Assembly: GCA_964611275.1 (NCBI GenBank)
Contig: CAZSZS010000107.1
Location: forward strand, 4,720 to 68,719
Direction: 5' to 3'
Source: an uncultured Eubacteriales bacterium
GTDB taxonomy: Bacteria; Acidobacteriota; Aminicenantia; Aminicenantales; Aminicenantaceae
DNA: 64,000 nt
This document shows positions 43,280 through 60,372 of the stretch, one piece after another. A program made the translations under genes and the position numbers. Under the pieces are notes generated by a model. It was not told the origin of the DNA, did not search any database, and saw only the letters and a list, made by a program, of their open reading frames with translations. The number at the start of each line of letters is the position of its first letter. Position 1 is the stretch's first letter.

Positions 43280-46200
43280 TCATGAGAAAAGTTTCATTTG
43301 GGAAGCTTTTTTTTGAAAAGTTCTGGGAGAGGCCTTTTTTATGAGTTTTTCCTCAATGGCATCAAGAAAGCGGCTTCTCCTCGGTTCTCTATGTTTACCC
43401 TGGATAAATCTTTTTTTGGCGTAGGTCAGGTACAGATATTTTTCAGCTCTGGTCATGCCCACATAGAGAAGCCGTCTTTCCTCCTCCAAGTCAGATGTGT
43501 GACCGGGGAACAGGGAGTATGGGAGGATGCCTTCTTCACAGCCTGTAATAAAAACACACGGGAACTCGAGGCCTTTGGCTGCGTGAAGTGTCATCAGAGT
43601 AACGCATTCCAGGGAAGAGTCATAGGTATCAGCACCTGAGCCCAGGAATATGTGTTTCATAAATTCTTCTGTGTTTTCGTCGAATTTATTCACCATATCA
43701 ATAAGCCTTTTAAAGGAGTCCTCTGATTCTTCTTTCTGCCGGATGAAAAAACGGTCTATAATGGCATTAAGGCTCTTGGTTGTGGGCATGTTTTTTGTTA
43801 TTTCATAAAGGCTGGAGACATCCTCGGTCTTTATGACTTTTCTTTTTGTCAAACTCTGTTTGAGAAAAACGCTCTCTTTATTAAGGCTGAGTCTCAATAT
43901 ATCGATCGCAGATCTTATAGGCTCCTCCCTGAAAAAAGGGATTTCTCCGATCTTTTGGAAAGGAATGCTGTGGTCGTTTAGGGCTTTTTCAATAGCCTTC
44001 ATTTGTTCTTTGATCCGGCACAGCACAGCAAAATCAGAAAGGCTGTTTATGTCTTCTTTTTCCTCGCCTTCACTGATATCGGAGTCCATGGAGAAAAATC
44101 TCAATCCGCCTATGGTGTCTTCGATTGTTCTGGCGACGAATTCAGCTTCACTCTTATCTGTGGTGTTTTCAGCCAGATTGATCTTCACTCCCCTGTGCAG
44201 TCCTTTGAGCAGATCTTCCTCAGATGCCGCTTTATTTATCATTTTTCCCGAAGCTTTAAGGATTAAGTCAGAGCACCTGTAGCTTTTCTTGAGTTTATAT
44301 AGGGAAGCCCCGGGATGATCTTTGAGGAAGTCGCTCATAAAACGAACATCAGCGCCCCTGAACCCATATATGGCCTGGTCAGGGTCTCCAATGGTATACA
44401 GGGAGGCATCCTGTCCCGGCATCAGTCTTTTTATCATCCGGTACTGGGCAAGATTGACATCCTGGAACTCGTCCACCAGTAAATGGGCATATCTGTTTTT
44501 ATAATCGTTCCATACAGACGGGACCTGTGAAAAAAGAATCAGGGGTTTATACAGGCAGTCATCCAGGTCGAAGAGGTCTGATTTTTTTAGCGTGTCTTCA
44601 TATGATTCAAATAGAGAAAAGAGGTTGGCATCTTTTATTTCCCCCGGTAATTTGAGGTTCTGTTTGATATTTTTTATGGATTTGGCAGTGGCTGTGGCGT
44701 CTTTACGTTTGAGACCGAATAAATCTCGGATCAGGATGTTTCTTTCTTCATCGTCAAGGATTGAAAACTTTTTACTTCTGCCCAGGTATTCAGGGTGTTT
44801 TTTGAGGATCCCATAGCCAAATGCATGAAAGGTGGATATGCTGAGTCCGGACAGGTCTGTTTCGTTGGGGAGCCACTCCTTCAATCTCTTTTGCATTTCC
44901 TGGGCAGCCTTGTTCGTAAACGTAACGGCAAGGATTTTTTCAAGGGGGACTCCTTTTTCCTGGATAAGATACGCTATTCTGCAGCACAGAGTATGGGTTT
45001 TTCCTGTTCCGGGCCCTGCAATGACCGCAGCCGGGCCTTTATCATGCAGGACAGCCTGTTTTTGCTCTCTGTTAAGCTTTTCCAGGGCAGCCAATTTTCC
45101 GTATTTTTCAGATCTGTCTTCCGCGATCTCCAGCTTTCTTTGAGACGGAGCCAGGGGCATTTTTGCCTGAAGCATTCTGTACTCATTGAGGTCAAAATTA
45201 ATGATTTTTCTTTTGGGTATGGCTGAGGGAGCCTCTGGTTTTTTATCAAACAGAAAGACCTGGCTCTCCGGTGATTGGAGTTCCTCCTTATTGAATACCT
45301 TTATTTTGCCGTACTCGCCGTCAAAGCCTTCCTGAATCAGAACCTGTCTGGAGCGCATCCTTTTTATGGCCTCGGCTAGTATTTCGTATCCTTCCTTTTT
45401 AAGTTCTTCTATCGGCAAATCAAGGAGAATACTTAATTCAGGCCCGTTTCTATTGATCAGAGAAAAGTATGCGGAATCGACTTTTTTGGAAGCGGTTCCG
45501 ACCCGTATGATCTCAGAGAGGATTTCTTTCAGGGGAATGATGGAATAGAAGGGCCGTTTATTCGGGCGCTCGTCAAGGTCTTCCCTGTCAGAAAGTTCGA
45601 CCACCCTGTTCATGACACCCACGGTGACTTTTTTCCCGCATTCGGGGCATACCCCCTTGTTCTGTAACGTCTGAACAGGGTTCCATCGTATACCGCATTT
45701 TCTATGGCCGTCGTAGTGATATTTTCCTTCCTGGGGGAAGAGGTCAATGGTGCCTAGAAATTTTTGAGGGTCTCCTGATTTCATGGCTTTGATGATATCT
45801 GTGTAAGACAAGTTCGTGTCAAGGATGTTGGCATTGCGGCCCAGTTTTTCGGGGGAATGAGCATCTGAATTTGAAACCAGTGTGTATTTATCCAAAAATG
45901 AGCACATCCAGTGCATGGGAGCGTCCGTGGAAAGACCGGTTTCAACAGCGGATATATGCGGTGTCAGGTCTTCAAAACACTCCTCAATGGAATCAAAGCC
46001 TGATTTTGACCCGAGCACAGAAAACCAGGGAGTCCATATATGGGCTGGAATAAAATACGTTCTATCCGAAGCTTCCAGAGTCATATCCAGGAGATCTCTG
46101 GAGTCAAGGCCTAAAATGGGTCTTCCGTCGGATGTGATGTTTCCGCCGATCCGCAGCAGGGAATTTTGTATTTTCTCAGCGGTCTGGAAATCAGGGGCCA

Positions 46201-46534
46201 GAATAACGTTATGTACCTTTCTGACTCTGCCGTTTTTTTTATATATGCTGCTTATTTCCGCTGAGAGCAAGAATCTGATTTCCGGACAGAGGTCAACGGC
46301 TTCGGGGATATTCAGCTCTTTTTGATACTCTTTTTTGAGCTTAAACAGGCCTTCTTCTGAAGGGGCCAGTTTTTCCTTGAGCTCTTTCAGCCATCCGGGA
46401 TGAGAAAAGTCTCCGGTACCTACCACGGAGATACCTTTCACCCCTGCCCAATAATGGATAAATTCAGGGGCAAGTTTCTTGCTGGTCGCCCGTGAGAAGT
46501 GGGAATGGATATGGAGGTCAGCAATAAACCGCAT
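43280..46534 (-). CDS. fusion protein: N-terminal PHP-domain (COG1379-type, with Zn ribbon) + C-terminal UvrD/PcrA superfamily-1 helicase
   Basis: PHP motifs (DLHIHSHFS, DAHSPE) and a CPECGKK zinc ribbon in the first ~400 aa. UvrD motifs I (AGPGTGKTHT), II (DEFQD) and VI (HAAKGLEF) in the C-terminal ~650 aa. Confidence 0.75.
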   Translation of the reverse strand: MRFIADLHIHSHFSRATSKKLAPEFIHYWAGVKGISVVGTGDFSHPGWLKELKEKLAPSEEGLFKLKKEYQKELNIPEAVDLCPEIRFLLSAEISSIYKKNGRVRKVHNVILAPDFQTAEKIQNSLLRIGGNITSDGRPILGLDSRDLLDMTLEASDRTYFIPAHIWTPWFSVLGSKSGFDSIEECFEDLTPHISAVETGLSTDAPMHWMCSFLDKYTLVSNSDAHSPEKLGRNANILDTNLSYTDIIKAMKSGDPQKFLGTIDLFPQEGKYHYDGHRKCGIRWNPVQTLQNKGVCPECGKKVTVGVMNRVVELSDREDLDERPNKRPFYSIIPLKEILSEIIRVGTASKKVDSAYFSLINRNGPELSILLDLPIEELKKEGYEILAEAIKRMRSRQVLIQEGFDGEYGKIKVFNKEELQSPESQVFLFDKKPEAPSAIPKRKIINFDLNEYRMLQAKMPLAPSQRKLEIAEDRSEKYGKLAALEKLNREQKQAVLHDKGPAAVIAGPGTGKTHTLCCRIAYLIQEKGVPLEKILAVTFTNKAAQEMQKRLKEWLPNETDLSGLSISTFHAFGYGILKKHPEYLGRSKKFSILDDEERNILIRDLFGLKRKDATATAKSIKNIKQNLKLPGEIKDANLFSLFESYEDTLKKSDLFDLDDCLYKPLILFSQVPSVWNDYKNRYAHLLVDEFQDVNLAQYRMIKRLMPGQDASLYTIGDPDQAIYGFRGADVRFMSDFLKDHPGASLYKLKKSYRCSDLILKASGKMINKAASEEDLLKGLHRGVKINLAENTTDKSEAEFVARTIEDTIGGLRFFSMDSDISEGEEKEDINSLSDFAVLCRIKEQMKAIEKALNDHSIPFQKIGEIPFFREEPIRSAIDILRLSLNKESVFLKQSLTKRKVIKTEDVSSLYEITKNMPTTKSLNAIIDRFFIRQKEESEDSFKRLIDMVNKFDENTEEFMKHIFLGSGADTYDSSLECVTLMTLHAAKGLEFPCVFITGCEEGILPYSLFPGHTSDLEEERRLLYVGMTRAEKYLYLTYAKKRFIQGKHREPRRSRFLDAIEEKLIKKASPRTFQKKASQMKLFS

Positions 46535-46604
46535 CTTGTTTCTATTTTAAACAAAAAACGGGGATGGTTCTATTTTTTTATTTGCTGCCCCATATTGTTT
46601 TAAG

Positions 46605-46650
46605 GAAAAATAAAAAGGCACTCCCCCATTTAAGGAGAGTGCCATTTTTT
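46605..46650. terminator. rho-independent terminator (GGCACTC…GAGTGCC + T-tract), usable on both strands
   Basis: Hairpin at 46617..46642 flanked by A- and T-runs. Lies downstream of cspA. Confidence 0.6.
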
Positions 46651-46673
46651 GTCTTGCGTATAGCGTAATCGAG

Positions 46674-46874
46674 TTAAACGACAGTCACATTTTTTGCCGC
46701 AGGTCCTTTGGGACCCTGCTCGATCTCAAAGGTAACTTTATCGCCTTCTTTGAGAGATTTGAAACCAGATGCGTTGATCGCTGAATGATGGACAAACACA
46801 TCCGGCCCGTCTTCCTGCTCAATGAAGCCGTAACCTTTGCTGCTATTGAACCACTTTACAGTTCCATTAGCCAT
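46674..46874 (-). CDS. cold-shock protein CspA family
   Basis: RNP1/RNP2 motifs (KGYGFI, VFVHH). AAGGAG ribosome-binding site. Confidence 0.9.
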
Positions 46875-47189
46875 TGTGGCATTCTCCTTTCCTAAGATAC
46901 TCAAGGTTTCAAACTGGGGGATGCCACTTAAAAAAATGGTACTCTCCTGCAGAACGAAACCGGCTTGCTCCTAAGAACAAACCTTTACTGATTTGACATA
47001 TTCTATCATATTTTTAAAAAAAAATACAGATATAGGGAAAAAACAAAAATATTTTTATATATTTTTCTTAAAAATCACATAAGTTCAGGTTTGAATCAGA
47101 TGCCAAAGAGAATGTGATCAAAATAGTCGGACTCCATATCCACGGGAACCAGGATGAGTCCTTACGTGATGGATAAGAGGGTCCCTGAT

Positions 47190-47537
47190 CTATTCGATTT
47201 CAAGTTCCATTTTTTCCAGATATAAATCAGTTCCGTCAAGTGTCTCCAGGTTAATGGAACCACATGAGCTGCAGTTAAGGACCAGGTCGTCTTTAATGGT
47301 CAATGCGCCGCAGTCCTTGCATTTCAGTTTAAGAGGGACTTTTTCGATTTCCAGCTCAGCCTCTGAAGCCAGGGTTTCTTTTTTGTAGATACCAAAGGCT
47401 GTCTCCAGCAGTTCCGGGACAGCTCCGGAAAGCACTCCGACTCGAAGCTTGACATAGGTGATTTTTTTGGAATTTTTTTCCTTTGCCTTCTGCTCCATGA
47501 TTTCAAACAGATTGGCGATTAGAGAAAGTTCATGCAT
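47190..47537 (-). CDS. hypA: hydrogenase Ni-insertion metallochaperone HypA
   Basis: MHE N-terminus (Ni site) and a CxxC…CxxC zinc site. Confidence 0.85.
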   Translation of the reverse strand: MHELSLIANLFEIMEQKAKEKNSKKITYVKLRVGVLSGAVPELLETAFGIYKKETLASEAELEIEKVPLKLKCKDCGALTIKDDLVLNCSSCGSINLETLDGTDLYLEKMELEIE

Positions 47538-48201
47538 TTGCCCGGCGCAGTTTTTTTAGGTTTTTTACGAGATAATCTACGAACTCTTTGATACCGGTTC
47601 CCTCAACAGAACTGATCTTGAATACTTCCAATTTCGGATTGACATCCAGGCTTTCCTGAACGGCCCGGTCTACGTTAAAGGGCATTTTATCTAAAAGGTC
47701 GGTTTTGCTGATGATAAGGGCGTCTGAAGTAAAAAACGCTTTGGGGTACTTTTTGGGTTTATCGTCTCCTTCCGGGACAGAAAGAAGCACACACCGAAGG
47801 CTTTCCCCCAGATCAAAGCTGGCAGGGCATACCAGGTTACCGACATTTTCTATAAACAGAAGATCCAGGTCAGCAGGGATTTCTGAGAATACTTTACCGA
47901 CCATTTTTGCATCCAGATGACAGGCGCCTCCGGTAGATATCTGCCATGCTTGAATCCCTTTTGCTCTTATTCTCTCTGCATCCCTTTCGGTTTCAATGTC
48001 CCCTTCTATCACTGCCATTTTATAACCGGGGGTGAGGACTTCTGAGAGATTTTCAAGCAGGGATGTTTTGCCTGCTCCGGGAGAGCTGAGGAGATTGATG
48101 GCAAGAATTCCCTTTTCAGATAATTTTCTCCTGATATCTCCGGCTATTTTCTTGTTTGAACCAAGCAGGTCTTCCAAAACCATGACTTCTTGTTTTTTCA
48201 T
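47530..48201 (-). CDS. hypB: hydrogenase Ni-incorporation GTPase HypB
   Basis: P-loop (SSPGAGKTSL), CH motif, and SIMIBI GTPase fold. Confidence 0.85.
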   Translation of the reverse strand: MKKQEVMVLEDLLGSNKKIAGDIRRKLSEKGILAINLLSSPGAGKTSLLENLSEVLTPGYKMAVIEGDIETERDAERIRAKGIQAWQISTGGACHLDAKMVGKVFSEIPADLDLLFIENVGNLVCPASFDLGESLRCVLLSVPEGDDKPKKYPKAFFTSDALIISKTDLLDKMPFNVDRAVQESLDVNPKLEVFKISSVEGTGIKEFVDYLVKNLKKLRRANA

Positions 48202-48374
48202 TTTGAAATATCTTTCAATAAGGATTTTAATTTTTTTATAACCACTGGTATCTTCTTTTTCATTTCCTCGGTCAATTTTTCTCCGAGATTGTACATGTTT
48301 TTTGCTTCTATGGCTATTATTTTTATACTTTTAGGGGCTTTCAGGCCTTTTTCAAAAATGGCAACTGAATGGAT

Positions 48375-49493
48375 TCAGCCTTTTGTCTCCTTGTGTTTGG
48401 GGAGAGACACAGAAAACGTGCTTCCTTTTCCCGGAGTGCTCGAGACATCAATAGTGCCCGAATGAGCATCTATTATTTTTTTTGATATGGAAAGTCCCAA
48501 TCCTGAGCCTTTCCCTTGCTTGCTTACGTTCCGGTTGACCCGAAAAAACTGATTGAAGAGCTGGGGAATATGTTTTTCTTCTATTCCCACACCGGTGTCT
48601 TTGATGTCAGTGATGATATACCCATCCTTTTCCCTGAACGATATTTTTACCGAACCGTTTGGTTTGTTGTATTTGACCGCATTGTTCATCAGGTTTGCGA
48701 ACGCCTGTTCCAGAGTTTCCTCGTCTCCCCTGACCGTGCTCTTTCCTGTGGGAGGTTCGATCTCAAGATTTATTTTATTCTTTTCTGCAACAGGCTGCAG
48801 AAATTCGATCTGTTTTTTTAAAAGAGCGAAAAGGGAGACCTGTTTGAATTTTTCCACAAGCTGCCCCTTATCGATCCGGGCCGCATCAAGCCAGTCATTG
48901 ATAAGTTCCAGCAGGCTTTCGACTCTGTTTCTGGCTTTGGATAACATGTCTTTATGCTCTTTTGACATCTCTCCCACAGAACCTGAGAGCATGACCTCAA
49001 AGTACTGGGCAATGGCAACCAGGGGGCTTCTGAGCTGATGGGATACCATTGTGATGAAGTTTTCTTCTATGCGCTTTTTTTCTTTCCTGAGCGATTCAGC
49101 TTCCCTGGACAGCTTTATTTTTTCCAGGCCTCTTTTTATGATGACCCTGAGTTGTTCGGGGGTAAAAGGTTTGGGAAGAAAGTCATATGCGCCTTTTTTC
49201 ATGGCCTCTACGGCTGACTCGACTGTTGCGTAACCTGTAATGACGATCGGAACGGTATCCGGGGATATTTCTCTTATTTTTTCAATCACATCCAAGCCGC
49301 CGATGCCGGGCATTTTTAAGTCAACCAGCGCAATGTCCGGTTTCATTTCTTCTACTTTTTCAAGACCTTTTTTTCCGTCTTCTGCTGTTTCGGTGAGGAA
49401 ACCGTCTTTTTCAAGTATCATACGGCAGGAATCACGCATTGATTCTTCATCGTCTATAACTACGGTAGAATGATTTTTTTTCTGCATGAACAC
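48375..49493 (-). CDS. hybrid response-regulator/histidine kinase (REC-HisKA-HATPase_c)
   Basis: N-terminal receiver domain (Asp in VDLKMPG), H-box (HQLRSPL), and N/G boxes. Confidence 0.8.
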   Translation of the reverse strand: MFMQKKNHSTVVIDDEESMRDSCRMILEKDGFLTETAEDGKKGLEKVEEMKPDIALVDLKMPGIGGLDVIEKIREISPDTVPIVITGYATVESAVEAMKKGAYDFLPKPFTPEQLRVIIKRGLEKIKLSREAESLRKEKKRIEENFITMVSHQLRSPLVAIAQYFEVMLSGSVGEMSKEHKDMLSKARNRVESLLELINDWLDAARIDKGQLVEKFKQVSLFALLKKQIEFLQPVAEKNKINLEIEPPTGKSTVRGDEETLEQAFANLMNNAVKYNKPNGSVKISFREKDGYIITDIKDTGVGIEEKHIPQLFNQFFRVNRNVSKQGKGSGLGLSISKKIIDAHSGTIDVSSTPGKGSTFSVSLPKHKETKG

Positions 49494-49567
49494 TTCCTTA
49501 TCTGGATTAATATTAGTTTATACGAGATTGAGTCCTGTTGTCCAGAGCAATGTTTTTCTAGATACAA

Positions 49568-52500
49568 TCAGGCCCGAAAAATACCTTCTATCTCAGCAAT
49601 GATTTGTGTGTCAGAGAAATGCTTGGCTGTAGAGGCTGAGGACGGACATGCTGACACACAGGTCCCGCATCCTTTGCAGAGGGCTTCGTTCACAACAGAT
49701 ACGCTTCTTTCTTCATCAAAGCTTATGGCTCCGTAGGGACATAGATTGTTGCACAGCCTGCAGCCCGCGCAGAGCTCCGGATCGATTTCAGCTTGAATGG
49801 GTTCGAGTTCTATTTGACCTTTGGAGATATTGGATAATATTCTTGCTGCGGCTGAGCTTGCTTGAGCTACCGAATCTGGAATATCCTTGGGCCCCTGACA
49901 GCATCCGGCAATATAGACTCCGTCTGTCGCCGTACTTGTCGGATCAAGCTTGGGATGTTTTTCAAGAAAGAAGCCGTCAGGGCTTCGGCTTATGGAAAAG
50001 AGCCTTGCCGTTTTTTCCACATCACGCTGCGGTTCTATAGCGTTGCAGAGAATGACCATATCTACCGGTATTTCCCTGTATTTTTTTATCAGAGTATCTT
50101 CACATTTGATGATAAGCGGTTCTGTCCCGTTATCAGAATGCCCGGCTCTAATGACTTCTGATACTTTTCCCCTTATAACGTTTACATCTTCATCGAGTAT
50201 CCTTGAATAGAATTCTTCATATCCTTTTCCGAATGAACGCATATCAATATAGAACTGATAGACTTCCGCATTTGATCTGTCTTTTATTAGATGAGCGAAT
50301 TTAAGGGCGTACATGCAGCATACACGGGAGCAGTATGGATGAAAGTTGATATCTCTGGATCCAACACAATGTATGATACCTATGGCCCTGGGTTCTTTTC
50401 CTTCTTTGGTCACAATAGTGCCTTTAGTCGGCCCGGTGGAGCTCACGATCCTTTCAAACTCCAGGCTTGTGTACACATTATCGAACTCTCCGTATCCGTA
50501 AGGAGTGAGAGCTTTTGAATCAAGAGTGTCATACCCTGTAGTCAAAAGAATCTGGCCGACATTGATCTCTTCTATTTCATCTGCCATACCATGGTCAATG
50601 GCCTGGGCTTCACAAACGGTTTCACAAACATGGCACTCAACGCAGAGTCCGCAGTTCAGGCATCTCGAGGCTTCTTTTGTTGCTTCTTCTTCGGAATAGC
50701 CCAGTTCCACTTCTTCGAAAGTGTAACGCCGCTTTTCAGGATCAAGCGCTTTCATTTCGGTGCGGTCCTTTTTAGGCAGATTCTTGAAAGGAAGGGAATA
50801 CCTGTGGGGCCGATCGTTTTCGTCTCGTTCAGGAAGGGAGTTACACTTTCTTGTTTTAAAATCACTTAGGGGTTCACCCTTGATGAATTTATCAATCACT
50901 TCAGCGGCTCGTTTTCCGTCCCCCATGGCTGTTATAACGGCATCTGGACCGCGAGCCACGTCTCCTCCTGCGAAAACTCCTTTTATTTCAGTTTCCATGG
51001 TATCCGGGTTGATATCAATGGTATTCCATTTCGTAAGTTTGAGATGGGCTTCTTTTTCAGCGTAATTGATTTCAGGTGACTGGCTGACTGCAATAATGAT
51101 GGTATCAATTTTCAGATCATACTCGCTGCCTTTTATGGGTATGGGACGCCGCCTTCCGCTTGAGTCAGGTTCTCCGAGTTCCATTTTTATACATTTCATT
51201 CCCGTTACTTTTCCGGATTTCCCTAAAACTTCGACAGGAGCAGTCAGATACTTTATACGGACCCCTTCTGCCTCGGCAGCCTGGATTTCAGCTTCTTCAG
51301 CAGGCATTTCTTTTCGTGTTCTTCTGTAAAGTATGGTCACTTCATCGGCTTTAAGGCGCAGGGCGGTCCTGGCTGCGTCAATAGCTGTGTTTCCTCCTCC
51401 GATGATGGCCACATTTTTTCCAACCGGTTGAGGTTTTTGAAGGCTTATATTGCGGAGAAAATCAACTCCGTGATAAACTCCTTCGTATTCTTCTTCTCCG
51501 GGAATATCCATTTTTCTGCTGCTGTGGGCACCTGTGGCTATATACACAGCCTGGTACCCCATCTTTTTCAGGGCTTTGATGTCAAAGTCTTTACCCAGAG
51601 CTTTATTTGTCTTTATATCCACACCCAGTTTTTTGATGTATTCTATATCTCGCTTAAGGATTTTCTTTGGGAGCCTGTATTCCGGAATTCCTACCGTGAG
51701 CATACCGCCTTCAACAGGGAGCTTTTCAAAGATGGTGACATCGTATCCTTTTAAGGCCAGGTCATGGCCGCACACAAGGCCTGACGGGCCTGAACCGATG
51801 ATAGCAATTTTTTCTTCTCTTTTCTTCTTGATTTCTGGGGGGTCAGGTTCTCCTTTATTCTCAAATTCCCAATCAATGGCATATCTTTTAAGATTTTTTA
51901 TGGAAACCGCCTTGTCCACAAATTTACGGTTGCATTCTGATTCACACGGGTGGTAGCAGACACGACCGCAGACACTGGGAAGAGCATTTTGCTGCCTTAT
52001 GAGACGGGCTGCTTCCTCAAAGCGCCCCTTTGAGATAAGAGTCACATAGCCTGCGGCTTCCTGGTCGATGGGACAGGTTTCGCGGCACGGAGGCCTGCTG
52101 TCTTTATCAATGACATAGGTATTGGGGATTGCCTGGGGAAAGGTTTTATATATGGCAGAACGTAAAGACTGGTTCTCTTCAAAAGGATTGGGGATGCTGA
52201 TCGGACACGCCTCGGAACATTCTCCGCAGGATGTGCAGTCATCTTTGACGAAACGGGCTTTCTTCCGTACTTTGACCGTGAAATTTCCTATGGATCCCTC
52301 CACTTCTTCCACTTCACTCAAGCTTAGGAGCTTGATATTTTTGTTTTGGGCAACAGATACCATTTTCGGAGTAAGGATACAAGCGGAGCAGTCAAGAGTT
52401 GGGAATGTTTTGTCAAATTTAGCCATTTTACCGCCTATAGTGGATTCTTTTTCTACTAAATAGACGTTATTTCCTGATTCAGCTATCTCTATAGCGGCTT

Positions 52501-52972
52501 GTATTCCGGCAATGCCGGCTCCCACTATCAAAGTGTCTGGATTGACATTAACCTTTACCGGTTCGAGAGGCTGTTGAAGGGCCACTCTGTTTACGGCCGC
52601 TCTTATAAGGGAAGTGGCTTTTTTCGTGGCGCTTTCAATATCTTTATGAATCCAAGAACACTGCTCTCTTATATTGACCATCTGGAACAGATACCGGTTC
52701 ACACCTGCTTTTTCACAGGCCATCCTGAATGTGGGTTCGTGCATTAAAGGGGAGCAGGAAGCGACGATGATCCGGTTCAGCCCCATTTCTTTGATGTCCT
52801 TCATGATAAGGTCCTGTCCGGGTTCAGAACACATGAATTTGTAGTCACGGACAACTTGTACATTTGGCTCATTTTTTATGGCATCGCGCGATTTTTCCAC
52901 ATCTACGGTGGCTGCTATGTTAGATCCACAGTGACATATATAAACCCCTATTTTTATGTTGTTGTCAGTCAT
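49568..52972 (-). CDS. HdrA-like heterodisulfide reductase flavoprotein with inserted GltD-like NAD(P)H domain (HdrL-type), 1134 aa
   Basis: HdrA N-terminal Cys cluster (IGVYICHCGSNIA). FAD motif (GAGIAGIQAA). Inserted ferredoxin. GltD-like 4Fe-4S region with a second dinucleotide fold (IIGSGPSGLVCGHDLA, IIGGGNTAIDAA). HdrA-type CSRVCC motif. C-terminal 2x[4Fe-4S] ferredoxin. Confidence 0.8.
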   Translation of the reverse strand: MTDNNIKIGVYICHCGSNIAATVDVEKSRDAIKNEPNVQVVRDYKFMCSEPGQDLIMKDIKEMGLNRIIVASCSPLMHEPTFRMACEKAGVNRYLFQMVNIREQCSWIHKDIESATKKATSLIRAAVNRVALQQPLEPVKVNVNPDTLIVGAGIAGIQAAIEIAESGNNVYLVEKESTIGGKMAKFDKTFPTLDCSACILTPKMVSVAQNKNIKLLSLSEVEEVEGSIGNFTVKVRKKARFVKDDCTSCGECSEACPISIPNPFEENQSLRSAIYKTFPQAIPNTYVIDKDSRPPCRETCPIDQEAAGYVTLISKGRFEEAARLIRQQNALPSVCGRVCYHPCESECNRKFVDKAVSIKNLKRYAIDWEFENKGEPDPPEIKKKREEKIAIIGSGPSGLVCGHDLALKGYDVTIFEKLPVEGGMLTVGIPEYRLPKKILKRDIEYIKKLGVDIKTNKALGKDFDIKALKKMGYQAVYIATGAHSSRKMDIPGEEEYEGVYHGVDFLRNISLQKPQPVGKNVAIIGGGNTAIDAARTALRLKADEVTILYRRTRKEMPAEEAEIQAAEAEGVRIKYLTAPVEVLGKSGKVTGMKCIKMELGEPDSSGRRRPIPIKGSEYDLKIDTIIIAVSQSPEINYAEKEAHLKLTKWNTIDINPDTMETEIKGVFAGGDVARGPDAVITAMGDGKRAAEVIDKFIKGEPLSDFKTRKCNSLPERDENDRPHRYSLPFKNLPKKDRTEMKALDPEKRRYTFEEVELGYSEEEATKEASRCLNCGLCVECHVCETVCEAQAIDHGMADEIEEINVGQILLTTGYDTLDSKALTPYGYGEFDNVYTSLEFERIVSSTGPTKGTIVTKEGKEPRAIGIIHCVGSRDINFHPYCSRVCCMYALKFAHLIKDRSNAEVYQFYIDMRSFGKGYEEFYSRILDEDVNVIRGKVSEVIRAGHSDNGTEPLIIKCEDTLIKKYREIPVDMVILCNAIEPQRDVEKTARLFSISRSPDGFFLEKHPKLDPTSTATDGVYIAGCCQGPKDIPDSVAQASSAAARILSNISKGQIELEPIQAEIDPELCAGCRLCNNLCPYGAISFDEERSVSVVNEALCKGCGTCVSACPSSASTAKHFSDTQIIAEIEGIFRA

Positions 52973-53844
52973 CTTTGTACCTCTCTTGATATTTTTTCTG
53001 GTTCAAAAGGTATGAGTGAACGGTTGAGGCCCAGCTCGCGGGGAGAGCCACCCAGAGCGTGACCGACGATCTGTGTGAAAAAAAGTACGGGGATCTTAAA
53101 ATCCGTTTCAAATTTTTTATTTATTTTGTTTTGATAGGCTTCCAAGTTGATCTGGCAGAGGGGGCAGGTTGTGATAATTATATCCGCGCCGTTTTCTTTA
53201 GCGCACTCCAGAAGTTTTTTATTGAGGCCCAGACCCACATCAGGATAGGTCGTCATGAGCATCCCGCCGCAGCACTGAGTCTTCATTGGGAAGTAGACAT
53301 TTTTAGCTCCAAGGGCTTCACACAGATCGTCCATCATCTGTGGATTGTCTTGATCGTCCAGTCCCCTTTCAGGTCTCACTATCTGGCAGCCGTAGTATTG
53401 AGCGATCTTTAGGCCTTCCAGGGATTTTTTTGCTTTGGCGGCTATCGTCTCGATGCCCACATCGTTAACCAGGACTTCAAGAGGATGCCTGACCTCGACA
53501 CTTAGATTATACCCGAGTCCTACTTTTCTTAAAGCTTGATTGACTTTTTCCCTCAGGATGCGGTTGTTTTTCAGGATATGATTTGTCTTATAAAGGATCG
53601 TATAGCAGGAACTGCATGGTGCTATGATATCCAGTCCTTTTTTTTCAGCAATAGCCAGGTTTCTGGCAGATATGACAAGAGATATAGTCTCTTTTGTGGC
53701 CATGTAATACGTGGCCCCGCAGCAGTTCCAGTCATCTATTTCTATGAGTTCATGTCCTAACTCATTGAAGACATAGTGCACAGATTCATCATATCCTTTC
53801 GCTGATGCCTCTAGGCTGCATCCCGGATAATAAGAGTAATTCAT
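52969..53844 (-). CDS. HdrB-like subunit (two CCG domains)
   Basis: CCGATYYMA and CCGGMLMTT cysteine-rich (CCG) motifs. Confidence 0.85.
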   Translation of the reverse strand: MNYSYYPGCSLEASAKGYDESVHYVFNELGHELIEIDDWNCCGATYYMATKETISLVISARNLAIAEKKGLDIIAPCSSCYTILYKTNHILKNNRILREKVNQALRKVGLGYNLSVEVRHPLEVLVNDVGIETIAAKAKKSLEGLKIAQYYGCQIVRPERGLDDQDNPQMMDDLCEALGAKNVYFPMKTQCCGGMLMTTYPDVGLGLNKKLLECAKENGADIIITTCPLCQINLEAYQNKINKKFETDFKIPVLFFTQIVGHALGGSPRELGLNRSLIPFEPEKISREVQR

Positions 53845-53897
53845 TTTTTTGCCTCCGAAAACATAAAGGAAGAGGAATGAGAAAGGGATATGATTGC

Positions 53898-54521
53898 TTA
53901 TGATTCCTGCATGGGAATAATATTTTCTACTATCTCTGCTTCCTTAAGTATTTTGGAAAAATTTTTTTTGTGTTTTATTTTTCTGGGGAAAAACCCTATC
54001 CTGCCGTTTTTAGCTAATTTTAAAAACAGAGGGATCATTCCTAAAAGTTTAAATGGATTTGTTCTTAAATAGTAAGCAACTAAAAGACCTGGTTCATAAC
54101 TCAGACCTAAATGGTTTACAAGCCAGACAAAAGAATTGGACAGCGCATAAACAGGGAATTTTTTTGGAAAAATTTCGTTTTCTATAGCCAGCCTTTTCAG
54201 TGTGTAAATAATATCTGTGACTTTAACTCCCTGAGGACACCGGACAGTACAGGAGTAGCAGGAAGCACAGATCCAGATGGTTCTGCTCGAGAGTATGGTA
54301 TCGATATCTTTCGCTCTGAAAAGGGCAATGATTTCCCTTGGCGTTATATCCATGGTATAGCTGACAGGACATGTAGCTGTGCATGTGCCGCACTGGATGC
54401 ATTTTTTTATACTTTCTCCACCCGGGATATTTTGTACTTGGAGCAGGAAAGAATTTCTTAGTTCTTTTTCTTTTTCATTGAGTATGCCAGGTAATATCTG
54501 GCCTGCCTTCCCTTTGGTCAT
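53898..54521 (-). CDS. HdrC-like 2x[4Fe-4S] ferredoxin subunit
   Basis: CIQCGTCTATCP and CASCYSCTVRCP cluster motifs. Confidence 0.8.
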   Translation of the reverse strand: MTKGKAGQILPGILNEKEKELRNSFLLQVQNIPGGESIKKCIQCGTCTATCPVSYTMDITPREIIALFRAKDIDTILSSRTIWICASCYSCTVRCPQGVKVTDIIYTLKRLAIENEIFPKKFPVYALSNSFVWLVNHLGLSYEPGLLVAYYLRTNPFKLLGMIPLFLKLAKNGRIGFFPRKIKHKKNFSKILKEAEIVENIIPMQES

Positions 54522-54925
54522 TTTTTCAGAAGCCTCTCTATGCGTTCGATCAGGTCGTCAGCTTTGACAGGTTTATCTATATAGTCGTCCGGTCCTTCCA
54601 TTCCTTCTTTATCTCCTTTGAATTGGAATCTGGAGCCGGTTACTTCTTTGACTGCAGAAATAAAAATCACAGGTGTGTTTTGGGCGGACTTGAATTCTTT
54701 TGAGGTTTTTATGGCATGACACAATGAGAATCCGTCAAAAAGACTGTCCATCATAATATCCAGAAGAATAAGATCAGGTTTTTCAGATAGGATTTTTTTC
54801 TTTCCTTCTTCGGGATTAGAAGCTGTGATGGCATCATAAGATGCGGAATGAAGGATTGGAGTGATAGCATCTCTGAAATCGGGATCGTCATCGATGATTA
54901 AAATTTTTGCTTTTGCTTTTTCCAT
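54518..54925 (-). CDS. single-domain response regulator (CheY-like REC)
   Basis: DD…D…K receiver residues. No output domain. Confidence 0.8.
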   Translation of the reverse strand: MEKAKAKILIIDDDPDFRDAITPILHSASYDAITASNPEEGKKKILSEKPDLILLDIMMDSLFDGFSLCHAIKTSKEFKSAQNTPVIFISAVKEVTGSRFQFKGDKEGMEGPDDYIDKPVKADDLIERIERLLKK

Positions 54926-54937
54926 TTTATTTCTCCT

Positions 54938-55309
54938 TTATTTACTGAAAGCATTTTTAATTGCCAGTTTTAATTCTTCCTTTCCAAATGATTTTATAAA
55001 ATAATAAAAGATATCTTGTTCTCTTACTTTCGCCTCTAATTCTTTCGTATTTTTTTTGGTTGTCATTATGACTTTTGTATCCGAGTCTATATTTTTTATT
55101 ATGGAAACAGCTTCGTATCCTTTCATCTCTGGAAGTTCGACCGCCATTATAGCACAATGAAAATGATTGGATGTGATTTTTTTTATGGCATCTGTAAGCC
55201 CTTTTCCTGTTTCTACTTGATACTCTTTTTGTTGAAGAAAGGATAATAATGATTTTCTGTCTTTCTCATCAGGGTCAATTATGAGAATTTTTTTCTTAAG
55301 ATTTTTCAT
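54938..55309 (-). CDS. single-domain response regulator (CheY-like REC)
   Basis: Receiver-domain fold. No output domain. Confidence 0.8.
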   Translation of the reverse strand: MKNLKKKILIIDPDEKDRKSLLSFLQQKEYQVETGKGLTDAIKKITSNHFHCAIMAVELPEMKGYEAVSIIKNIDSDTKVIMTTKKNTKELEAKVREQDIFYYFIKSFGKEELKLAIKNAFSK

Positions 55310-55342
55310 TTATAATATCCTTGCATTGTACATTGAGTATAA

Positions 55343-55358
55343 CTGCAATAATTGTGCC
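55343..55358 (-). promoter_or_regulatory. sigma-54 promoter TGGCAC-AATTA-TTGCA (-24/-12)
   Basis: Minus-strand TTGGCACAATTATTGCAG has canonical GG-N10-GC spacing. Lies about 35 nt upstream of the first REC gene start (55309). Confidence 0.6.
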
Positions 55359-55475
55359 AAATCTAAATTTACTTTTCTGCATTTGTAAATATCTTTTAAG
55401 TCTTTAAAAACAAAAAAGTTAATACATTTTCAACTCAAAAAAAACAAAAAAACATTCTACATATATCCACCATAT

Positions 55476-55494
55476 GAGTGGAAATATTCCACAC
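55476..55494. promoter_or_regulatory. palindromic upstream activator site AGTGGAAATATTCCACAC
   Basis: 6-3-6 perfect inverted repeat (GTGGAA-ATA-TTCCAC) about 125 bp upstream of the sigma-54 promoter. The same motif recurs at 60354..60372. Confidence 0.45.
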
Positions 55495-55541
55495 AGTGTA
55501 TGAACATGCCCCAGACAGGAGAACATTCATCAGTTGTAAGT

Positions 55542-55569
55542 GAAGGGCTTGTCAGGAGACAAGCCCTTC
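55542..55569. terminator. strong hairpin GAAGGGCTTGTC-agga-GACAAGCCCTTC downstream of the hydrogenase large-subunit gene
   Basis: 12-bp perfect stem. No long U-tract. Confidence 0.45.
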
Positions 55570-55705
55570 GTATAAAATATTTATGAAAAAGAAAACCGTC
55601 CAGAGGTGATATAGATTGATACAGGAAAAAACAGGTGGGAAGTTATTTGTTGAGGAAACACTATCCTATGATGGCCACCTCTAAGGACGATTCTTCTCAT
55701 CGGTT

Positions 55706-57448
55706 TTAATTCTTCAAATGGTTTATGATTTCAAGGACAGCCTTTTGTACTGGGGGACTTAATTTATTTCCCGGGGCTACTGAATCCGGCTGTATCCCTA
55801 CTACATACGCATTTTTTTGCATGGACAGATTTTTAATGCTTGATATAAATGGTATGAATTTATGGCTCACACTGGATTGGCTGAGGATGTATTCCAAAGG
55901 AAGAACGGTTATCTTGCCTGCTTTTTCATTAAAATCAACCGCATCAAAGAAAACGAGAGGTTTCTTTTCGCTGGAGCTTTTCAGGCTGTCGTTTCTGATT
56001 ATTTCTGATTCAAGCCATACATCTTTAAATCCGAGACCGCATAGTTTTTTTGCTATATCAATACCGCAGCCGTCGTCACTGCGGTCTTCCTTTCCAGCCC
56101 CTATATAGATTGGTGTTCTGTCTTTCCTTATCTCTTCCAGTTTGTTTTTCCAGTTTCCGGAGGGAGCGTGTGTGACTTTAGCCAAATGGGCGGAGCAGCT
56201 GATACAGGGGTCAAAGGCCCTGACAACGATTTCCATTCTTTGTTTGATCTCATCTTCTTTTCCTGAATCAAGGAGATTTTGGGCAGCGATGTGGCAGTAC
56301 TTCTCGATATCTTCCGCATTCTGGGCCGTAGGGGTCACGATGTCCACATAGGAAATGCGTCCATCGCTGATTTCATGATGATGGATGAGAAGCCCTCTTG
56401 GGGCTTCCACCAGTCCTGTTCCTTTTCCGTTTTTTGCCGTGTATTTGACGGGCTTTGGGGTTTCTTCAAACTTGAGGATTTCATCCACCAGTTCTATGAT
56501 CCTTTCAAAACAGTAACTGATTTCCAGAGCCTGGGCGGCATTATGAAACAAGGGATTGACTTCCCAGCGTTTATTGAAATATTTTTTATACATTTTCCCT
56601 GTTTCACCCTTGAACCTTTTCCCTAAGTTGTTGACTCTGGCTAAGGCTCCTACAGAGTAAGGCTTTCCTTTGTAGCGGCTGCGCTTGCAAAAGGAATGAG
56701 AAACAACAAACTCGTTCGTGAGTTTTTGGTAATCGTCTCTAAAGAATTTTTCGCCTGTGGAAAGCATTATTTCGTCTCCCCAGAATCCATAGTTGTTATT
56801 CCCTGGTTCACAGCAGGCATAGATGGTTTCTTTTTCGGGGACTTCGGGATAATCAAGAGTGCAGAAGAGATCGACGGTCTTTTTAACAAAGGGCATGAAT
56901 TGGACTGCTCTGTTTTTTATAAAGACAAGTTCCTCTAGGGATGGGAATGCGCCGAAACCACCGATGATGGGATTTTCGCCGTGAATATAACGCCCGCTCA
57001 GGACTTTCATGACATGGTTGGCAAAATGCTTCATCTCCAGAGCGATTTTGACTTCAAGTTCGAAGTCCGATGCCATGGCTATGGCATTGGGATATCCCAA
57101 GTAATCAGGGAGAGCAAGGTAGTATGTGTGAAGAGAATGGCTTTCGATCATTTCTCCCATATGCATGAGTTCTCTGCAGAGATAGGATTTGGGATGTATT
57201 TTAATATTAAGTGCGTTTTCCATAGACCGGAGAACTGCGTTTTTATGTGAAAGAGTGCAGATGGCACATATCCGGGGAGACATACTGACATCTTCTTCAG
57301 GAGTTAGGCCGATGGTCAGCTTTTCTATGAGGCGGGGGCCTTCATATATACTGAATTTAACGTCTGATACAACTTTTCCGTCAATGGTGGCTGATATGCC
57401 ACCGTTTCCTTCAACTCTGGCTAGATGGTCTACACTTATCTTTTTCAT
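55706..57448 (-). CDS. [NiFe]-hydrogenase large (alpha) subunit, group 3, fused at its C-terminus to a hydrogenase maturation endopeptidase (HycI/HybD-like) domain
   Basis: N-terminal RICAICTLSH (RxCxxCxxxH) and C-terminal DPCISCSAH Ni-Fe site motifs. The additional ~150 aa after the His carry protease-family motifs (IYIGAGKEDRSDDGCGI, FFDAVDF, SxH). Confidence 0.85.
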   Translation of the reverse strand: MKKISVDHLARVEGNGGISATIDGKVVSDVKFSIYEGPRLIEKLTIGLTPEEDVSMSPRICAICTLSHKNAVLRSMENALNIKIHPKSYLCRELMHMGEMIESHSLHTYYLALPDYLGYPNAIAMASDFELEVKIALEMKHFANHVMKVLSGRYIHGENPIIGGFGAFPSLEELVFIKNRAVQFMPFVKKTVDLFCTLDYPEVPEKETIYACCEPGNNNYGFWGDEIMLSTGEKFFRDDYQKLTNEFVVSHSFCKRSRYKGKPYSVGALARVNNLGKRFKGETGKMYKKYFNKRWEVNPLFHNAAQALEISYCFERIIELVDEILKFEETPKPVKYTAKNGKGTGLVEAPRGLLIHHHEISDGRISYVDIVTPTAQNAEDIEKYCHIAAQNLLDSGKEDEIKQRMEIVVRAFDPCISCSAHLAKVTHAPSGNWKNKLEEIRKDRTPIYIGAGKEDRSDDGCGIDIAKKLCGLGFKDVWLESEIIRNDSLKSSSEKKPLVFFDAVDFNEKAGKITVLPLEYILSQSSVSHKFIPFISSIKNLSMQKNAYVVGIQPDSVAPGNKLSPPVQKAVLEIINHLKN

Positions 57449-58227
57449 TTTGACTCCTTTTTAAATTGTTTCAAAAAATCGATCAGCTTTGTGCCTGAAT
57501 AATTAGCCATTCGTTTCTTTATGGATTCAATGTCAAACCCTTTTTCCTGTAAAAGATAATATTCAGAGGTGAAATTGGCCCCTTCCACATGTCCCCAGCA
57601 ACCGAAGCAGGGCACATTGTGATTCGGACATATGGAGCCGCACCCATCTGCTGTCAGGGGGCCCAAGCAGGGGATTCCTTTATTTAAAAGGCAGTCATTC
57701 TCATTGTATTTGCATGTGACACAGACTGGCCGCGGATATCTTTCCGGAAGACTCCCTTTTACAGCCCGGGTAAAGAGGTCGAGAAACTGTTCTTTCCCAA
57801 TAGGACAGCCAGGGAGATAATGATCTACTTTTATATAAGCATCTATGGGCTTGGACTGGACAGGTTTGGTGTGGGTCATCTCTATATCTCCGTAGACTTC
57901 CTTGTATTTCTTTTTCCACTCATTTGGGTCGGTGAATCTTGCCTGTATGCCACCGACAGTAGCGCACAGTCCTATGGCGATCACGATTTCAGCTCTTTCT
58001 CTTATGTCTTTGAGCTCTTCGATCTCTCTTTCTGTGCTCACAGAGCCTTCTACCAGAGCGATGTCAAGCTTTCCATCTATGTTCTCACTGCTAGCCATGA
58101 GAAAGGACTGTATGTCCACAGCTTTAAATATATCAAGCAGTTCTTTTTCGCAGTCAAGAATGAGTAAAGCATCTCCGGCACATCCTGTTAACTCATAAAT
58201 TCCGATTTTTAATTTTCCATTATTCAT
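57445..58227 (-). CDS. [NiFe]-hydrogenase small (delta) subunit, group 3
   Basis: IGIYELTGCAGD proximal-cluster motif and C-terminal Cys clusters. No selenocysteine. Confidence 0.85.
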   Translation of the reverse strand: MNNGKLKIGIYELTGCAGDALLILDCEKELLDIFKAVDIQSFLMASSENIDGKLDIALVEGSVSTEREIEELKDIRERAEIVIAIGLCATVGGIQARFTDPNEWKKKYKEVYGDIEMTHTKPVQSKPIDAYIKVDHYLPGCPIGKEQFLDLFTRAVKGSLPERYPRPVCVTCKYNENDCLLNKGIPCLGPLTADGCGSICPNHNVPCFGCWGHVEGANFTSEYYLLQEKGFDIESIKKRMANYSGTKLIDFLKQFKKESK

Positions 58228-58237
58228 TGTATCCCCC

Positions 58238-60156: not shown

Positions 60157-60225
60157 TTAAGGTGTCCTTTGATGTTCATAGAATTTTTTATAAAAAAGTA
60201 AGCATCACTCATCCGTTTGTCATTA

Positions 60226-60241
60226 TGCAAATTATGTGCCT
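60226..60241 (-). promoter_or_regulatory. sigma-54 promoter AGGCAC-ATAAT-TTGCA (-24/-12)
   Basis: Minus-strand GG-N10-GC with a TTGCA -12 box, about 70 nt upstream of the beta-subunit start. Confidence 0.55.
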
Positions 60242-60353
60242 ATTGAATGGCAAAATGGCCATTTTTTGATAAAGATCTAAATCATTGAATTAAAAGGAAG
60301 TAGGCGGTTTTGTTTCGATAAGTGGAAAATCGCTTGAATAAAAAAACGAAATT

Positions 60354-60372
60354 GTGTGGAAAAATTCCACAC
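60354..60372. promoter_or_regulatory. palindromic upstream activator site GTGTGGAA-AAA-TTCCACAC
   Basis: Perfect 8-3-8 inverted repeat about 125 bp upstream of the sigma-54 promoter. A half-site AAGTGGAAAAT lies at 60320..60330. Confidence 0.45.

Follow-up and report, generated by a model that had tools for sequence, protein, structure and literature searches.

Receiver and histidine kinase genes interleaved with hydrogenase and Hdr genes in an Aminicenantes genome: a conserved cassette with candidate sigma-54 control

Genes of the locus

The DNA considered here is a 64,000-nucleotide stretch of contig CAZSZS010000107.1 from an uncultured bacterium of the Aminicenantales, and this whole stretch is referred to below as the window. 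On its minus strand the window carries a set of eight genes, REC1 through hypA, in which two receiver genes and a histidine kinase gene are interleaved with genes for Hdr subunits and for hydrogenase maturation. These genes run from 55309 to 47190 in the order and at the coordinates given in a preliminary description of the same DNA, and the strong family match obtained for each open reading frame (ORF) rules out chance or mis-called ORFs. The eight genes are real, but the earlier list missed a remnant of hycI, which occupies what had been read as a 173-nt gap, as well as the hydrogenase genes at 60156-55706. The gaps from REC1 to hypA, in gene order, are 12, -4, 53, -4, 80, 173 and -8 nt. The features of this stretch are as follows:

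54938-55309 (-): REC1, stand-alone pseudo-receiver of 123 amino acids (aa); Response_reg, E 5e-19
54518-54925 (-): REC2, canonical stand-alone receiver of the PhoB/OmpR receiver type, 135 aa; Response_reg, E 2.9e-19
53898-54521 (-): hdrC, 2x[4Fe-4S] subunit; best model TIGR03290, E 3e-22; Fer4_8/17/9
52969-53844 (-): hdrB, two CCG domains (E 3e-28); TIGR03288, E 2e-65
49568-52972 (-): hdrL, 1134 aa; HdrA (NF040770, 795 bits) split by a GltD-like NAD(P)-binding module
48375-49487 (-): Rec-HisKA-HATPase kinase (Rec-kinase), 370 aa; ATG at 49487, alternative GTG at 49493
48198-48374 (-): hycI remnant, matching HycI residues 94-161; tblastn E 5e-13 against the HycI of related locus L089
47530-48201 (-): hypB, nickel-insertion GTPase; TIGR00073, 252 bits against a cut-off of 121
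47190-47537 (-): hypA, nickel metallochaperone; TIGR00100, 94 bits against a cut-off of 88

The hdr genes encode the parts expected of an HdrBC catalytic module, with two CCG domains in HdrB and a 2x[4Fe-4S] ferredoxin domain in HdrC, and both proteins score below the equivalog cut-offs of the methanogen HdrB and HdrC models. HdrL combines an HdrA core with an extra NAD(P)H-binding, GltD-like module, which is the architecture defined for HdrL in Desulfobacterium autotrophicum and Syntrophobacter (PMC2702500, PMC5947623; Strittmatter et al. 2009). The HdrA2 model matches this protein in two stretches (residues 1-300 and ~775-1132), PRK12771 matches residues 276-802 (536 bits against a cut-off of 516), Pfam recognizes Fer4_20 and Pyr_redox_2, and a 2x[4Fe-4S] domain lies at the C-terminus. 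Domain scans of HdrL and of the neighboring genes found no FlpD/MvhD domain; mvhD is a usual associate of hdrL, being co-located at all three D. autotrophicum hdrL loci, and is not part of the definition.

Directly upstream of these genes, and on the same strand, lie the genes for a four-subunit hydrogenase (hydBGDA), which are in turn preceded by genes for a sensor kinase and an activator:

61755-63740 (-): sensor histidine kinase, 661 aa; sCache_3_3 and HAMP-HisKA-HATPase (Pfam); best NCBIfam match AtoS
60413-61774 (-): NtrC-type sigma-54 activator, 453 aa; receiver domain (REC) with Asp59, AAA+ domain with GSFTGA loop, HTH_8; AtoC/NtrC/ZraR-like in NCBIfam
59095-60156 (-): hydrogenase beta subunit (HydB/ShyB-like, Fer4_22); Pfam and NCBIfam
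58238-59098 (-): hydrogenase gamma subunit (HydG/ShyC-like, FAD/NAD(P)-binding); Pfam and NCBIfam
57445-58227 (-): hydrogenase delta (small) subunit; Pfam and NCBIfam
55706-57448 (-): hydrogenase alpha (large) subunit HydA, residues 1-424 of group 3b type followed by a HycI-like tail of ~159 aa

The closest named enzyme models for all four subunits are the Hyd/Shy (sulfhydrogenase) subunits of Pyrococcus/Thermococcus, and residues 4-424 of HydA match PDB entry 5yxy_A with an E-value of 4.6e-100 (5yxy/9nez, E ~1e-100). The subunit set, including a Fer4_22 beta subunit and an FAD/NAD(P) gamma subunit, is that of a group 3b enzyme. The scores of HydA, HydB, HydD and HydG (193-371 bits) lie below the NCBIfam equivalog cut-offs (460-880), which belong to Thermococcales-specific models, and hydBGDA is classed on these matches as a distant member of the group 3b type, not as an equivalog. 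It had been considered unusual for hypAB to follow the hdr genes rather than the hydrogenase structural genes. This oddity disappears with the wider view, as hypBA close a hydrogenase cluster whose structural genes lie 400 nt upstream of REC1, and sister loci without hdr read hydBGDA-REC1-REC2-kinase-hycI-hypBA.

In the sensor kinase, transmembrane (TM) segments at residues 12-30 and 331-349 flank an extracytoplasmic sCache_3_3 domain of ~300 aa, and with its H-box AHEINNPL (His448) the kinase is AtoS/NtrB-like. The activator gene overlaps that of the adjoining, cognate kinase by 20 nt, and its product has the build of the NtrC family: a REC domain, an AAA+ sigma-54 interaction domain with the GSFTGA loop at residue 222, and HTH_8.

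Related loci and transcription units

The conservation of this gene order was followed in ~85 loci that were collected by context look-ups and by a scan of one genome per species, and that were mapped with tblastn. More than 100 homologues of the Rec-kinase have the same length (59-92% identity; labelled Aminicenantes, Acidobacteriota or similar), and the order of the signalling genes is kept in ~35 related loci from Aminicenantes, Chloroflexota, Verrucomicrobiota and others. In arrangement A the genes read hydBGDA-REC1-REC2-hdrC-hdrB-hdrL-RecHK-(hycI)-hypBA, where RecHK is the Rec-kinase; this arrangement is found in the window and in L004, L006, L007, L011, L019, L086 and L089, and is fitted from REC1 onward by L001, whose contig ends just upstream of REC1 so that hydBGDA is not visible. 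Arrangement B is the same without hdr (L002, L003, L009, L010, L012, L016, L017 and L020). In arrangement C (L014) the genes for the sensor kinase, the activator, REC1, REC2 and RecHK are contiguous, without such enzyme genes between them; L018 resembles this arrangement, with REC1 not detected there. In arrangement D the five signalling genes are followed by hydBGDA (L021, from candidate division TA06, and L022, from Aerophobetes).

Consequently, it is the signalling genes that recur and the redox genes that change. Across the relatives, hydrogenase, hdr, formate-dehydrogenase-like and hyp genes occur at varying points among the signalling genes, with hdrL present in 8 of 18 close loci and hdrCBL in about half of the relatives. 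Counted over loci with a length of 9 kb or more, genes of the hdr, hydrogenase or hyp kind occur in 17 of the 18 loci with a kinase identity of at least 56%, in 15 of 19 at 40-55%, and in 8 of 33 below 40%. From the constancy of the signalling order and the variability of the redox genes it follows that the enzyme genes are set within a signalling cassette, and not signalling genes within an enzyme operon. The preliminary description, which asked whether the order is conserved in relatives, had the signalling genes embedded in a metabolic operon; the order is indeed conserved, and the framing is turned around, with hdrCBL as an optional insert and the signalling genes as the conserved scaffold.

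A different type of redox module is attached to the cassette in L014 (a Candidatus Zhuqueibacter metagenome-assembled genome (MAG)), where a receiver-GcvH (lipoyl-carrier-like) fusion, a Fer4_11 protein and an NrfD/cytochrome c7 fusion are encoded downstream at 11670-15219. A second NtrC-type activator gene lies upstream in the same locus.

The transcription signals of the window are as follows:

55344-55359 (-): sigma-54 promoter TGGCACaattaTTGCA, exact -24/-12 match; predicted start near 55333
55477-55493 (no strand): enhancer (upstream activating sequence) palindrome TGTGGAAtatTTCCAC(T), ~120 nt upstream of the -24 element of the REC1 promoter
55540-55567 (-): 12-bp GC-rich hairpin downstream of hydA; dG -23.1 kcal/mol, z -9.2
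60226-60241 (-): sigma-54-like -24/-12 element AGGCACataatTTGCA, one mismatch; 70 nt before hydB
60355-60371 (no strand): enhancer (upstream activating sequence) palindrome TGTGGAAtttTTCCACA, ~115 nt upstream of the hydrogenase promoter

The element before REC1, TGGCACaattaTTGCA, is the sole exact sigma-54 match in the 64-kb window, and the pairing of a GG-N10-GC element with an upstream palindrome as putative activator site is that of a sigma-54 target promoter. A -24/-12 element lies 39-50 nt before REC1 in nearly all relatives in which the region upstream of REC1 was examined, in arrangements A, B and D alike (window, L001, L002, L004, L006, L007, L009, L011, L012, L016, L017, L019, L022, L086 and L089). 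No such element precedes hdrC, the kinase gene, hycI or hypB in the loci examined. In 10 loci a strict pattern places the palindrome at -168 to -189 from the REC1 start, where the background rate is 0.1 hits per kb, and imperfect enhancer palindromes are visible in the remaining loci. On the hydrogenase side, equivalents of the form AGGCAT/TGGCAT-N5-TTGC precede hydB in L009, L012, L016 and L020, and L012 has TGGGGAAaaaTTCCCCA at the position equivalent to the hydB-side enhancer.

The same half-sites (TGTGGAA-N3-TTCCAC) lie ~115-125 nt upstream of both sigma-54 promoters of the window. In most relatives the enhancer is TGGGGAA-N3-4-TTCCCCA; the half-site at the REC1 promoter is TGTGGAA in the clade of the window (window, L086 and L089), and the site at the hydB promoter of the window is also TGTGGAA. 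Because both sites have changed in concert, it is argued that one protein, the activator, reads both. There is good comparative evidence that REC1 begins a sigma-54 operon under the neighboring activator, and that the most conserved target of this activator is the signalling operon itself. Loci that have the activator and a shorter cassette (L025, L026 and L028) carry a sigma-54 element directly before REC2-RecHK.

Results from folding are in keeping with two transcription units. The hairpin at 55540-55567, which stands between hydA and the enhancer of the REC1 promoter, is a probable terminator or stabilizer between them, and relatives carry non-homologous hairpins at the same place downstream of hydA. 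The gaps within the unit from REC1 to hypA showed no significant structure (z -1.45, 0.08 and 0.41). As for internal terminators, the only minus-strand scan matches inside the unit are weak and lie within the coding sequences of hdrL and hypB, and no Rfam family reached the gathering threshold in 46000-64000. Co-transcription from REC1 through hypA is likely, which agrees with the single sigma-54-driven unit proposed earlier: the -24/-12 element before REC1 is conserved, none precedes the internal genes, and the gaps lack significant hairpins.

Signalling proteins and their candidate wiring

The Rec-kinase contains Response_reg (residues 11-119), HisKA (144-210) and HATPase_c (256-367) domains and no other sensor domain according to Pfam. 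Its domain order, receiver (Rec), helical linker, dimerization and histidine phosphotransfer (DHp) domain, catalytic and ATP-binding (CA) domain, is that of a Rec-controlled histidine kinase, and both architecture and length are the same in more than 100 homologues. Asp12, Asp13, Asp56, Thr84, Lys106, His150 and the N and G (G1/G2) boxes are invariant in 22 orthologues. The linker, 118-GLEKIKLSREAESLRKEKKRIEENF-143, is of helical, charged character. The best structural relative of the receiver is Aquifex NtrC1, whose receiver and linker align with residues 7-145; the kinase core is PhoR/PnpS/HK853-like. The protein aligns to LvrB (PDB 8vc9, E 3e-21), and from these features it is assigned to the LvrB/PhcR class of Rec-controlled histidine kinases.

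The receiver of this kinase resembles that of the activator. In the window the two share 46-47% identity, and the mean over 16 genomes is ~49%. Each is only 20-29% identical to REC1 and REC2, and they share the sequence DDEES(I/M)RDSC in alpha1, the kinase-docking helix. By this comparison the Rec-kinase receiver is a paralogue of the activator receiver. Cys21, in the alpha1 helix of the Rec-kinase receiver, is invariant.

The preliminary description listed two "CheY-like" proteins. Two receiver-only proteins are present, but only REC2 is phosphorylatable here. REC2 has the full canonical set of receiver residues (Asp12/13, Asp56, Ser90 and Lys118, followed by Pro), is PhoB/PhoP-like, and carries a conserved insertion of ~20 aa before beta5; its alpha4-beta5 output face is remodelled in a manner that is conserved across phyla. 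REC1 has Asp-Pro in place of the Asp-Asp pair and Ala56 in place of the phospho-Asp, with Thr83 and Lys106 (then Ser) present. Replacement of the acidic pair by Asp-Pro/Ser/Thr is family-wide. Ala56 (codon GCG) is common to the window, L086 and L089, while most other orthologues have Asp and L016 has Glu. A sequencing error was ruled out as the source of this change, since the same GCG codon is found in the two independent relatives L086 and L089. With the rest of the protein highly conserved, REC1 in the lineage of the window is read as a pseudo-receiver still under selection, apparently with a function that has become fixed in this sub-lineage and does not depend on phosphorylation. In L002 and L003, REC1 and REC2 are fused as a single dual-receiver ORF of 262 aa (7131-7919 (+), in a MAG labelled Candidatus Desulfaltia), a Rosetta-stone hint which suggests that REC1 and REC2 act together.

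Based on these observations, it is on balance probable that the genes from REC1 to hypA form the distal of two operons in a sigma-54 regulon with two promoters, wired from sensor kinase to activator and from sensor kinase through Rec-kinase to REC2. First, the sensor kinase would phosphorylate the receiver of the activator, and both operons (hydBGDA and REC1 to hypA) would be switched on. The sensor kinase would also phosphorylate the paralogous receiver of the Rec-kinase; the only pointer to this switching on of the Rec-kinase by the upstream kinase is the ~49% identity of its receiver to that of the activator. Next, phosphorylation of Rec would release the kinase core, as in LvrB, and the released core would phosphorylate the PhoB-type receiver REC2, with the Asp-less REC1 as a phosphorylation-independent partner. 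The output of phosphorylated REC2 would probably be by protein binding, by analogy with PhcQ. Since the activator would itself induce the Rec-kinase and REC2, this wiring would add a feed-forward or feedback loop to an otherwise simple two-component switch. Finally, HypAB and the protease domain fused to HydA would mature the hydrogenase. NAD(P)H may serve as the shared currency of the two enzymes, with the hydrogenase interconverting H2 and NAD(P)H, as enzymes of group 3b do (PMC6472368), and HdrCBL coupling NAD(P)H to disulfide and ferredoxin.

Several points weigh against this regulon and its wiring. The H-box of the Rec-kinase (SHQLRSPL) has Gln151 directly after the phospho-His, a Gln that is found in all 22 close orthologues and is replaced by Glu in distant relatives. 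An acidic residue at this position of HisKA kinases is normally needed for autophosphorylation. Consequently, Gln151 could weaken autophosphorylation of the Rec-kinase, which may be a weak kinase or mainly a phosphatase or transfer hub. The wiring is drawn from paralogy and from agreement in family type between DHp and receiver sequences, both of them leads rather than tests. A co-evolution signal is absent, as the two NtrC-like receivers show no excess of identity within the same genome (49.4% vs 48.4%). REC1 has lost its phospho-Asp here yet keeps it in most relatives, so that its role may differ between lineages. With regard to transcription, the promoter and enhancer before hydB are weaker and escaped detection in some relatives, sigma-70-like hexamers in the hycI remnant before hypB may give hypBA an extra promoter, and no rpoN gene is visible in the window.

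Outside the close relatives, a trio of sensor kinase, RecHK and REC genes stands beside or inside hdr clusters at 40-45% kinase identity in Chloroflexota, Verrucomicrobiota, Gemmatimonadota, Ignavibacteriales and Elusimicrobia. For example, L038 reads trio-hdrC-hdrB-hdrA-mvhD-mvhG-mvhA-hycI, and L027 (a Verrucomicrobia MAG, 5828-16964) reads hdrA-trio-hdrC-hdrB-molybdopterin oxidoreductase (formate-dehydrogenase-like)-HydB-like-HydG-like. In L027 the same regulators thus accompany an Hdr cluster whose electron-input module is of another kind; the HydB/HydG-like proteins are NAD(P)H subunits. Given the H2/NAD(P)H chemistry of group 3b and the NAD(P)H module of HdrL, the group 3b hydrogenase and HdrCBL of the window could replace the H2-driven Mvh-Hdr unit that accompanies the trio elsewhere. 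It is a tentative suggestion that the Cache sensor kinase, the Rec-kinase and the insertion-bearing receiver form a dedicated, previously undescribed regulator of Hdr-type flavin-based electron-bifurcating modules (with H2, formate or NAD(P)H input) in at least six phyla; the phosphorylated receiver would act on the enzyme complex or on another regulator, and the sigma-54 activator of the Aminicenantes would be a later add-on. Should the cassette prove specific for Hdr-type bifurcating enzymes, no regulatory system would have been linked to this enzyme class across phyla before it.

The trio loci also bear on where the signal goes. They lack the activator and, at the positions where one might be expected, a sigma-54 promoter (the single strict match in activator-less loci, at position 8359 of L033, is well downstream of hdrB). 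Together with the remodelled output face of REC2, kept across phyla, this favors post-translational control, in which the Rec-kinase and REC2 (and REC1) act directly on the Hdr/hydrogenase complexes, for instance through binding of phosphorylated REC2 to HdrCBL or HydBGDA, by which electron flow or assembly would be gated. This possibility is rather unlikely: the cassette has neither hdr nor hydrogenase genes in its flanks in L014 and in L025/L026, L018 has only a distantly related hydrogenase nearby, and about half of the close relatives have no hdr at the locus. Post-translational control is compatible with the two-promoter regulon as its output step and competes with it for that step only.

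In one form of the feedback on the NtrC-like activator that the preliminary description suggested, the embedded kinase would phosphorylate or dephosphorylate this activator directly, as a second kinase for it, and the CheY-like proteins would be phosphate sinks. A link to the activator is likely from the palindrome that both promoters share, some feedback is built in when the kinase and the receivers are induced by the activator, and receiver-only proteins are known as sinks (PMC8578825). Direct feedback from kinase to activator is not the best-supported route and we hold it to be improbable, because it is the receiver of the Rec-kinase, and not its His domain, that resembles the partner surface of the activator. 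The DHp helix of the Rec-kinase, SHQLRSPLVAIAQY, differs from that of the cognate kinase of the activator at the usual specificity positions, and its PhoR/HK853 family type fits REC2 and not NtrC-type receivers. In addition, REC1 cannot accept phosphate here, and the same pair of kinase and REC is found in loci without the activator.

Two readings fare worse. Two-component genes are numerous and REC2 has no known output, but it is very improbable that the REC and kinase genes are coincidental neighbors, orphans with unrelated partners, as more than 30 loci, which come from at least six phyla and have kinase identities as low as ~40%, keep their order and adjacency, a conserved sigma-54 promoter directly precedes REC1, and their start and stop codons overlap those of enzyme genes. 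Hydrogenase genes are under the control of an NtrC-family activator and a sigma-54 promoter in Ralstonia eutropha and Rhodobacter capsulatus, but H2 sensing as by HoxJ/HoxA or HupT/HupR, where the kinase that controls the activator receives the H2 signal from a hydrogenase, hardly fits a window in which no group 2b regulatory hydrogenase, no second hydrogenase and, by Pfam, no PAS domain or PAS-containing soluble kinase was found, in which two TM helices of the sensor kinase enclose an extracytoplasmic Cache domain, and in which the Rec-kinase has no sensor domain beyond REC.

Known systems, HydA processing and other genes

A close parallel to the predicted logic, from an upstream kinase through Rec and His to a downstream receiver, is the LvrA-LvrB-LvrC pathway of Leptospira, for which the mechanism of Rec-HK activation has been described and demonstrated structurally for LvrB (PMC13269768). 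Like the kinase of the window, LvrB has the order Rec-linker-DHp-CA and a phospho-Asp at position 56. LvrC is a Rec/anti-sigma fusion, whereas its counterpart in the window is a receiver-only protein; the kinase of the window differs in having Gln next to the phospho-His, and the role of Lvr, in virulence, is unrelated. A sensor kinase, a Rec-HK and a receiver-only protein are also encoded in the phcB-phcS-phcR-phcQ operon of Ralstonia quorum sensing (PMC8578825), in which PhcQ binds and stabilizes PhcA (PMC13320629). The likeness lies in a single operon with a membrane sensor kinase, a soluble Rec-HisKA-HATPase protein without a DNA-binding domain, and a receiver-only protein. In contrast to the window, the Phc system has a quorum-signal input, a LysR regulator (PhcA) as output, no sigma-54 activator branch, no second (pseudo-)receiver and no association with hydrogenase or Hdr genes, and the proteins of the window are not Phc orthologues.

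Control of hdr genes through sigma-54 is known from Desulfovibrio vulgaris, where the DVU2394/DVU2395 two-component system controls the adh-hdrCBA-flx operon (PMC3333781, PMC4641369). DVU2394 is likewise an NtrC-type regulator with a GSFTGA loop that activates a sigma-54 operon for a cytoplasmic, NADH-linked Hdr complex; it differs in its direct-repeat binding site, as opposed to the palindrome of the window, and in having no link to [NiFe] hydrogenase or hyp genes. The papers on this operon describe no embedded Rec-kinase or receiver-only genes (PMC3333781, PMC4641369). With regard to the enzymes, the MvhADG-HdrABC and HdrL complexes (Mvh-Hdr structure cited in PMC6472368) share with the window a two-CCG HdrB, HdrC, an HdrA-type flavoprotein, the NAD(P)H insertion in the case of HdrL, and hydrogenase and Hdr genes encoded side by side. 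They differ in that the hydrogenase of the window is of group 3b (HydBGDA) rather than Mvh (3c), with no mvhD gene and no selenocysteine in the system of the window.

In E. coli, FhlA and sigma-54 control the hyc and hyp operons, where hydrogenase structural genes are regulated together with hypA/hypB and the gene for the HycI protease. FhlA differs from the activator of the window in being a one-component formate sensor without a receiver, its hydrogenase is a membrane-associated group 4 enzyme, and there is no second kinase tier. The design of sensor kinase, Rec-HK and receiver-only protein is therefore known, as is sigma-54 control of hdr genes and of hydrogenase/hyp genes. Not found described were the combination of the two designs, a cassette embedded in hydrogenase/Hdr clusters across phyla, and the pseudo-receiver partner; a literature search found no relevant paper on signalling genes with group 3b hydrogenase or with mvhD/hdrA.

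The role of group 3c and Hdr genes in bacteria is considered unresolved (PMC6472368). In anoxic sediments, the genes for group 3b/3c hydrogenases and bacterial Hdr complexes rank with the most abundant of all redox genes. We know of no work on the regulation of these genes in uncultured lineages such as Aminicenantes, and the arrangement described here points to a previously undescribed control of hydrogen and redox metabolism in uncultured anaerobes. A recognizable, conserved cassette with a defined promoter, an enhancer site and a predicted wiring offers a handle for finding the inducing signal and a marker for co-regulated redox modules in metagenomes, as well as a natural test case, outside pathogens, for the recently solved mechanism of Rec-controlled kinases.

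The large subunit of the hydrogenase has an unusual C-terminus. Both Ni-binding motifs, N-terminal RxCxxC (RICAICTLSH) and C-terminal DPCxxCxxH (DPCISCSAH, His421), are present in HydA, but instead of a short cleavable peptide a HycI-like domain of ~159 aa directly follows DPCISCSAH421. Residues 449-578 match TIGR00072 (hydrogenase maturation protease; 51.5 bits against a cut-off of 47.45), and the tail keeps the three metal-ligand motifs G.G....SDD..G, FxDAxD and LSH(K/R). The fusion is found in twelve Aminicenantes-type loci (window, L002, L004, L006, L007, L009, L012, L016, L017, L020, L086 and L089), while the HydA tails are normal in TA06 (L021, 11 residues) and Aerophobetes (L022, 5 residues). 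These features suggest that the tail would self-process HydA in cis. No report of a natural fusion of a hydrogenase large subunit with its protease was found in the literature.

The fate of the stand-alone hycI gene is of interest in this regard. An intact hycI lies between the kinase gene and hypB in L001, L003, L004, L007, L009, L016, L017 and L089, and L002 and L003 differ only in its presence. The window retains a residual ORF of 32 codons (48296-48198) in the remnant, whose stop codon overlaps the hypB ATG. The deletion is shared by L086 (a 92% relative), and hycI is intact in L089 (an 84% relative). That the stand-alone gene is deleted in exactly the lineage of the window is consistent with the fused HydA domain working in cis.

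The other ORFs of the window, for an efflux pump, a BNR-repeat protein, a MacB-type transporter, a topoisomerase, DprA and others, have no bearing on the cassette. Downstream of hypA, at 43280-46534 (-), the window encodes a UvrD/PcrA-type helicase of 1084 aa with an N-terminal domain of ~410 aa that belongs to the TIGR00375 family (180 bits; Pfam label MJ0043_C in L086). This architecture is unusual, and the gene is kept beside cspA in L086 and L089.

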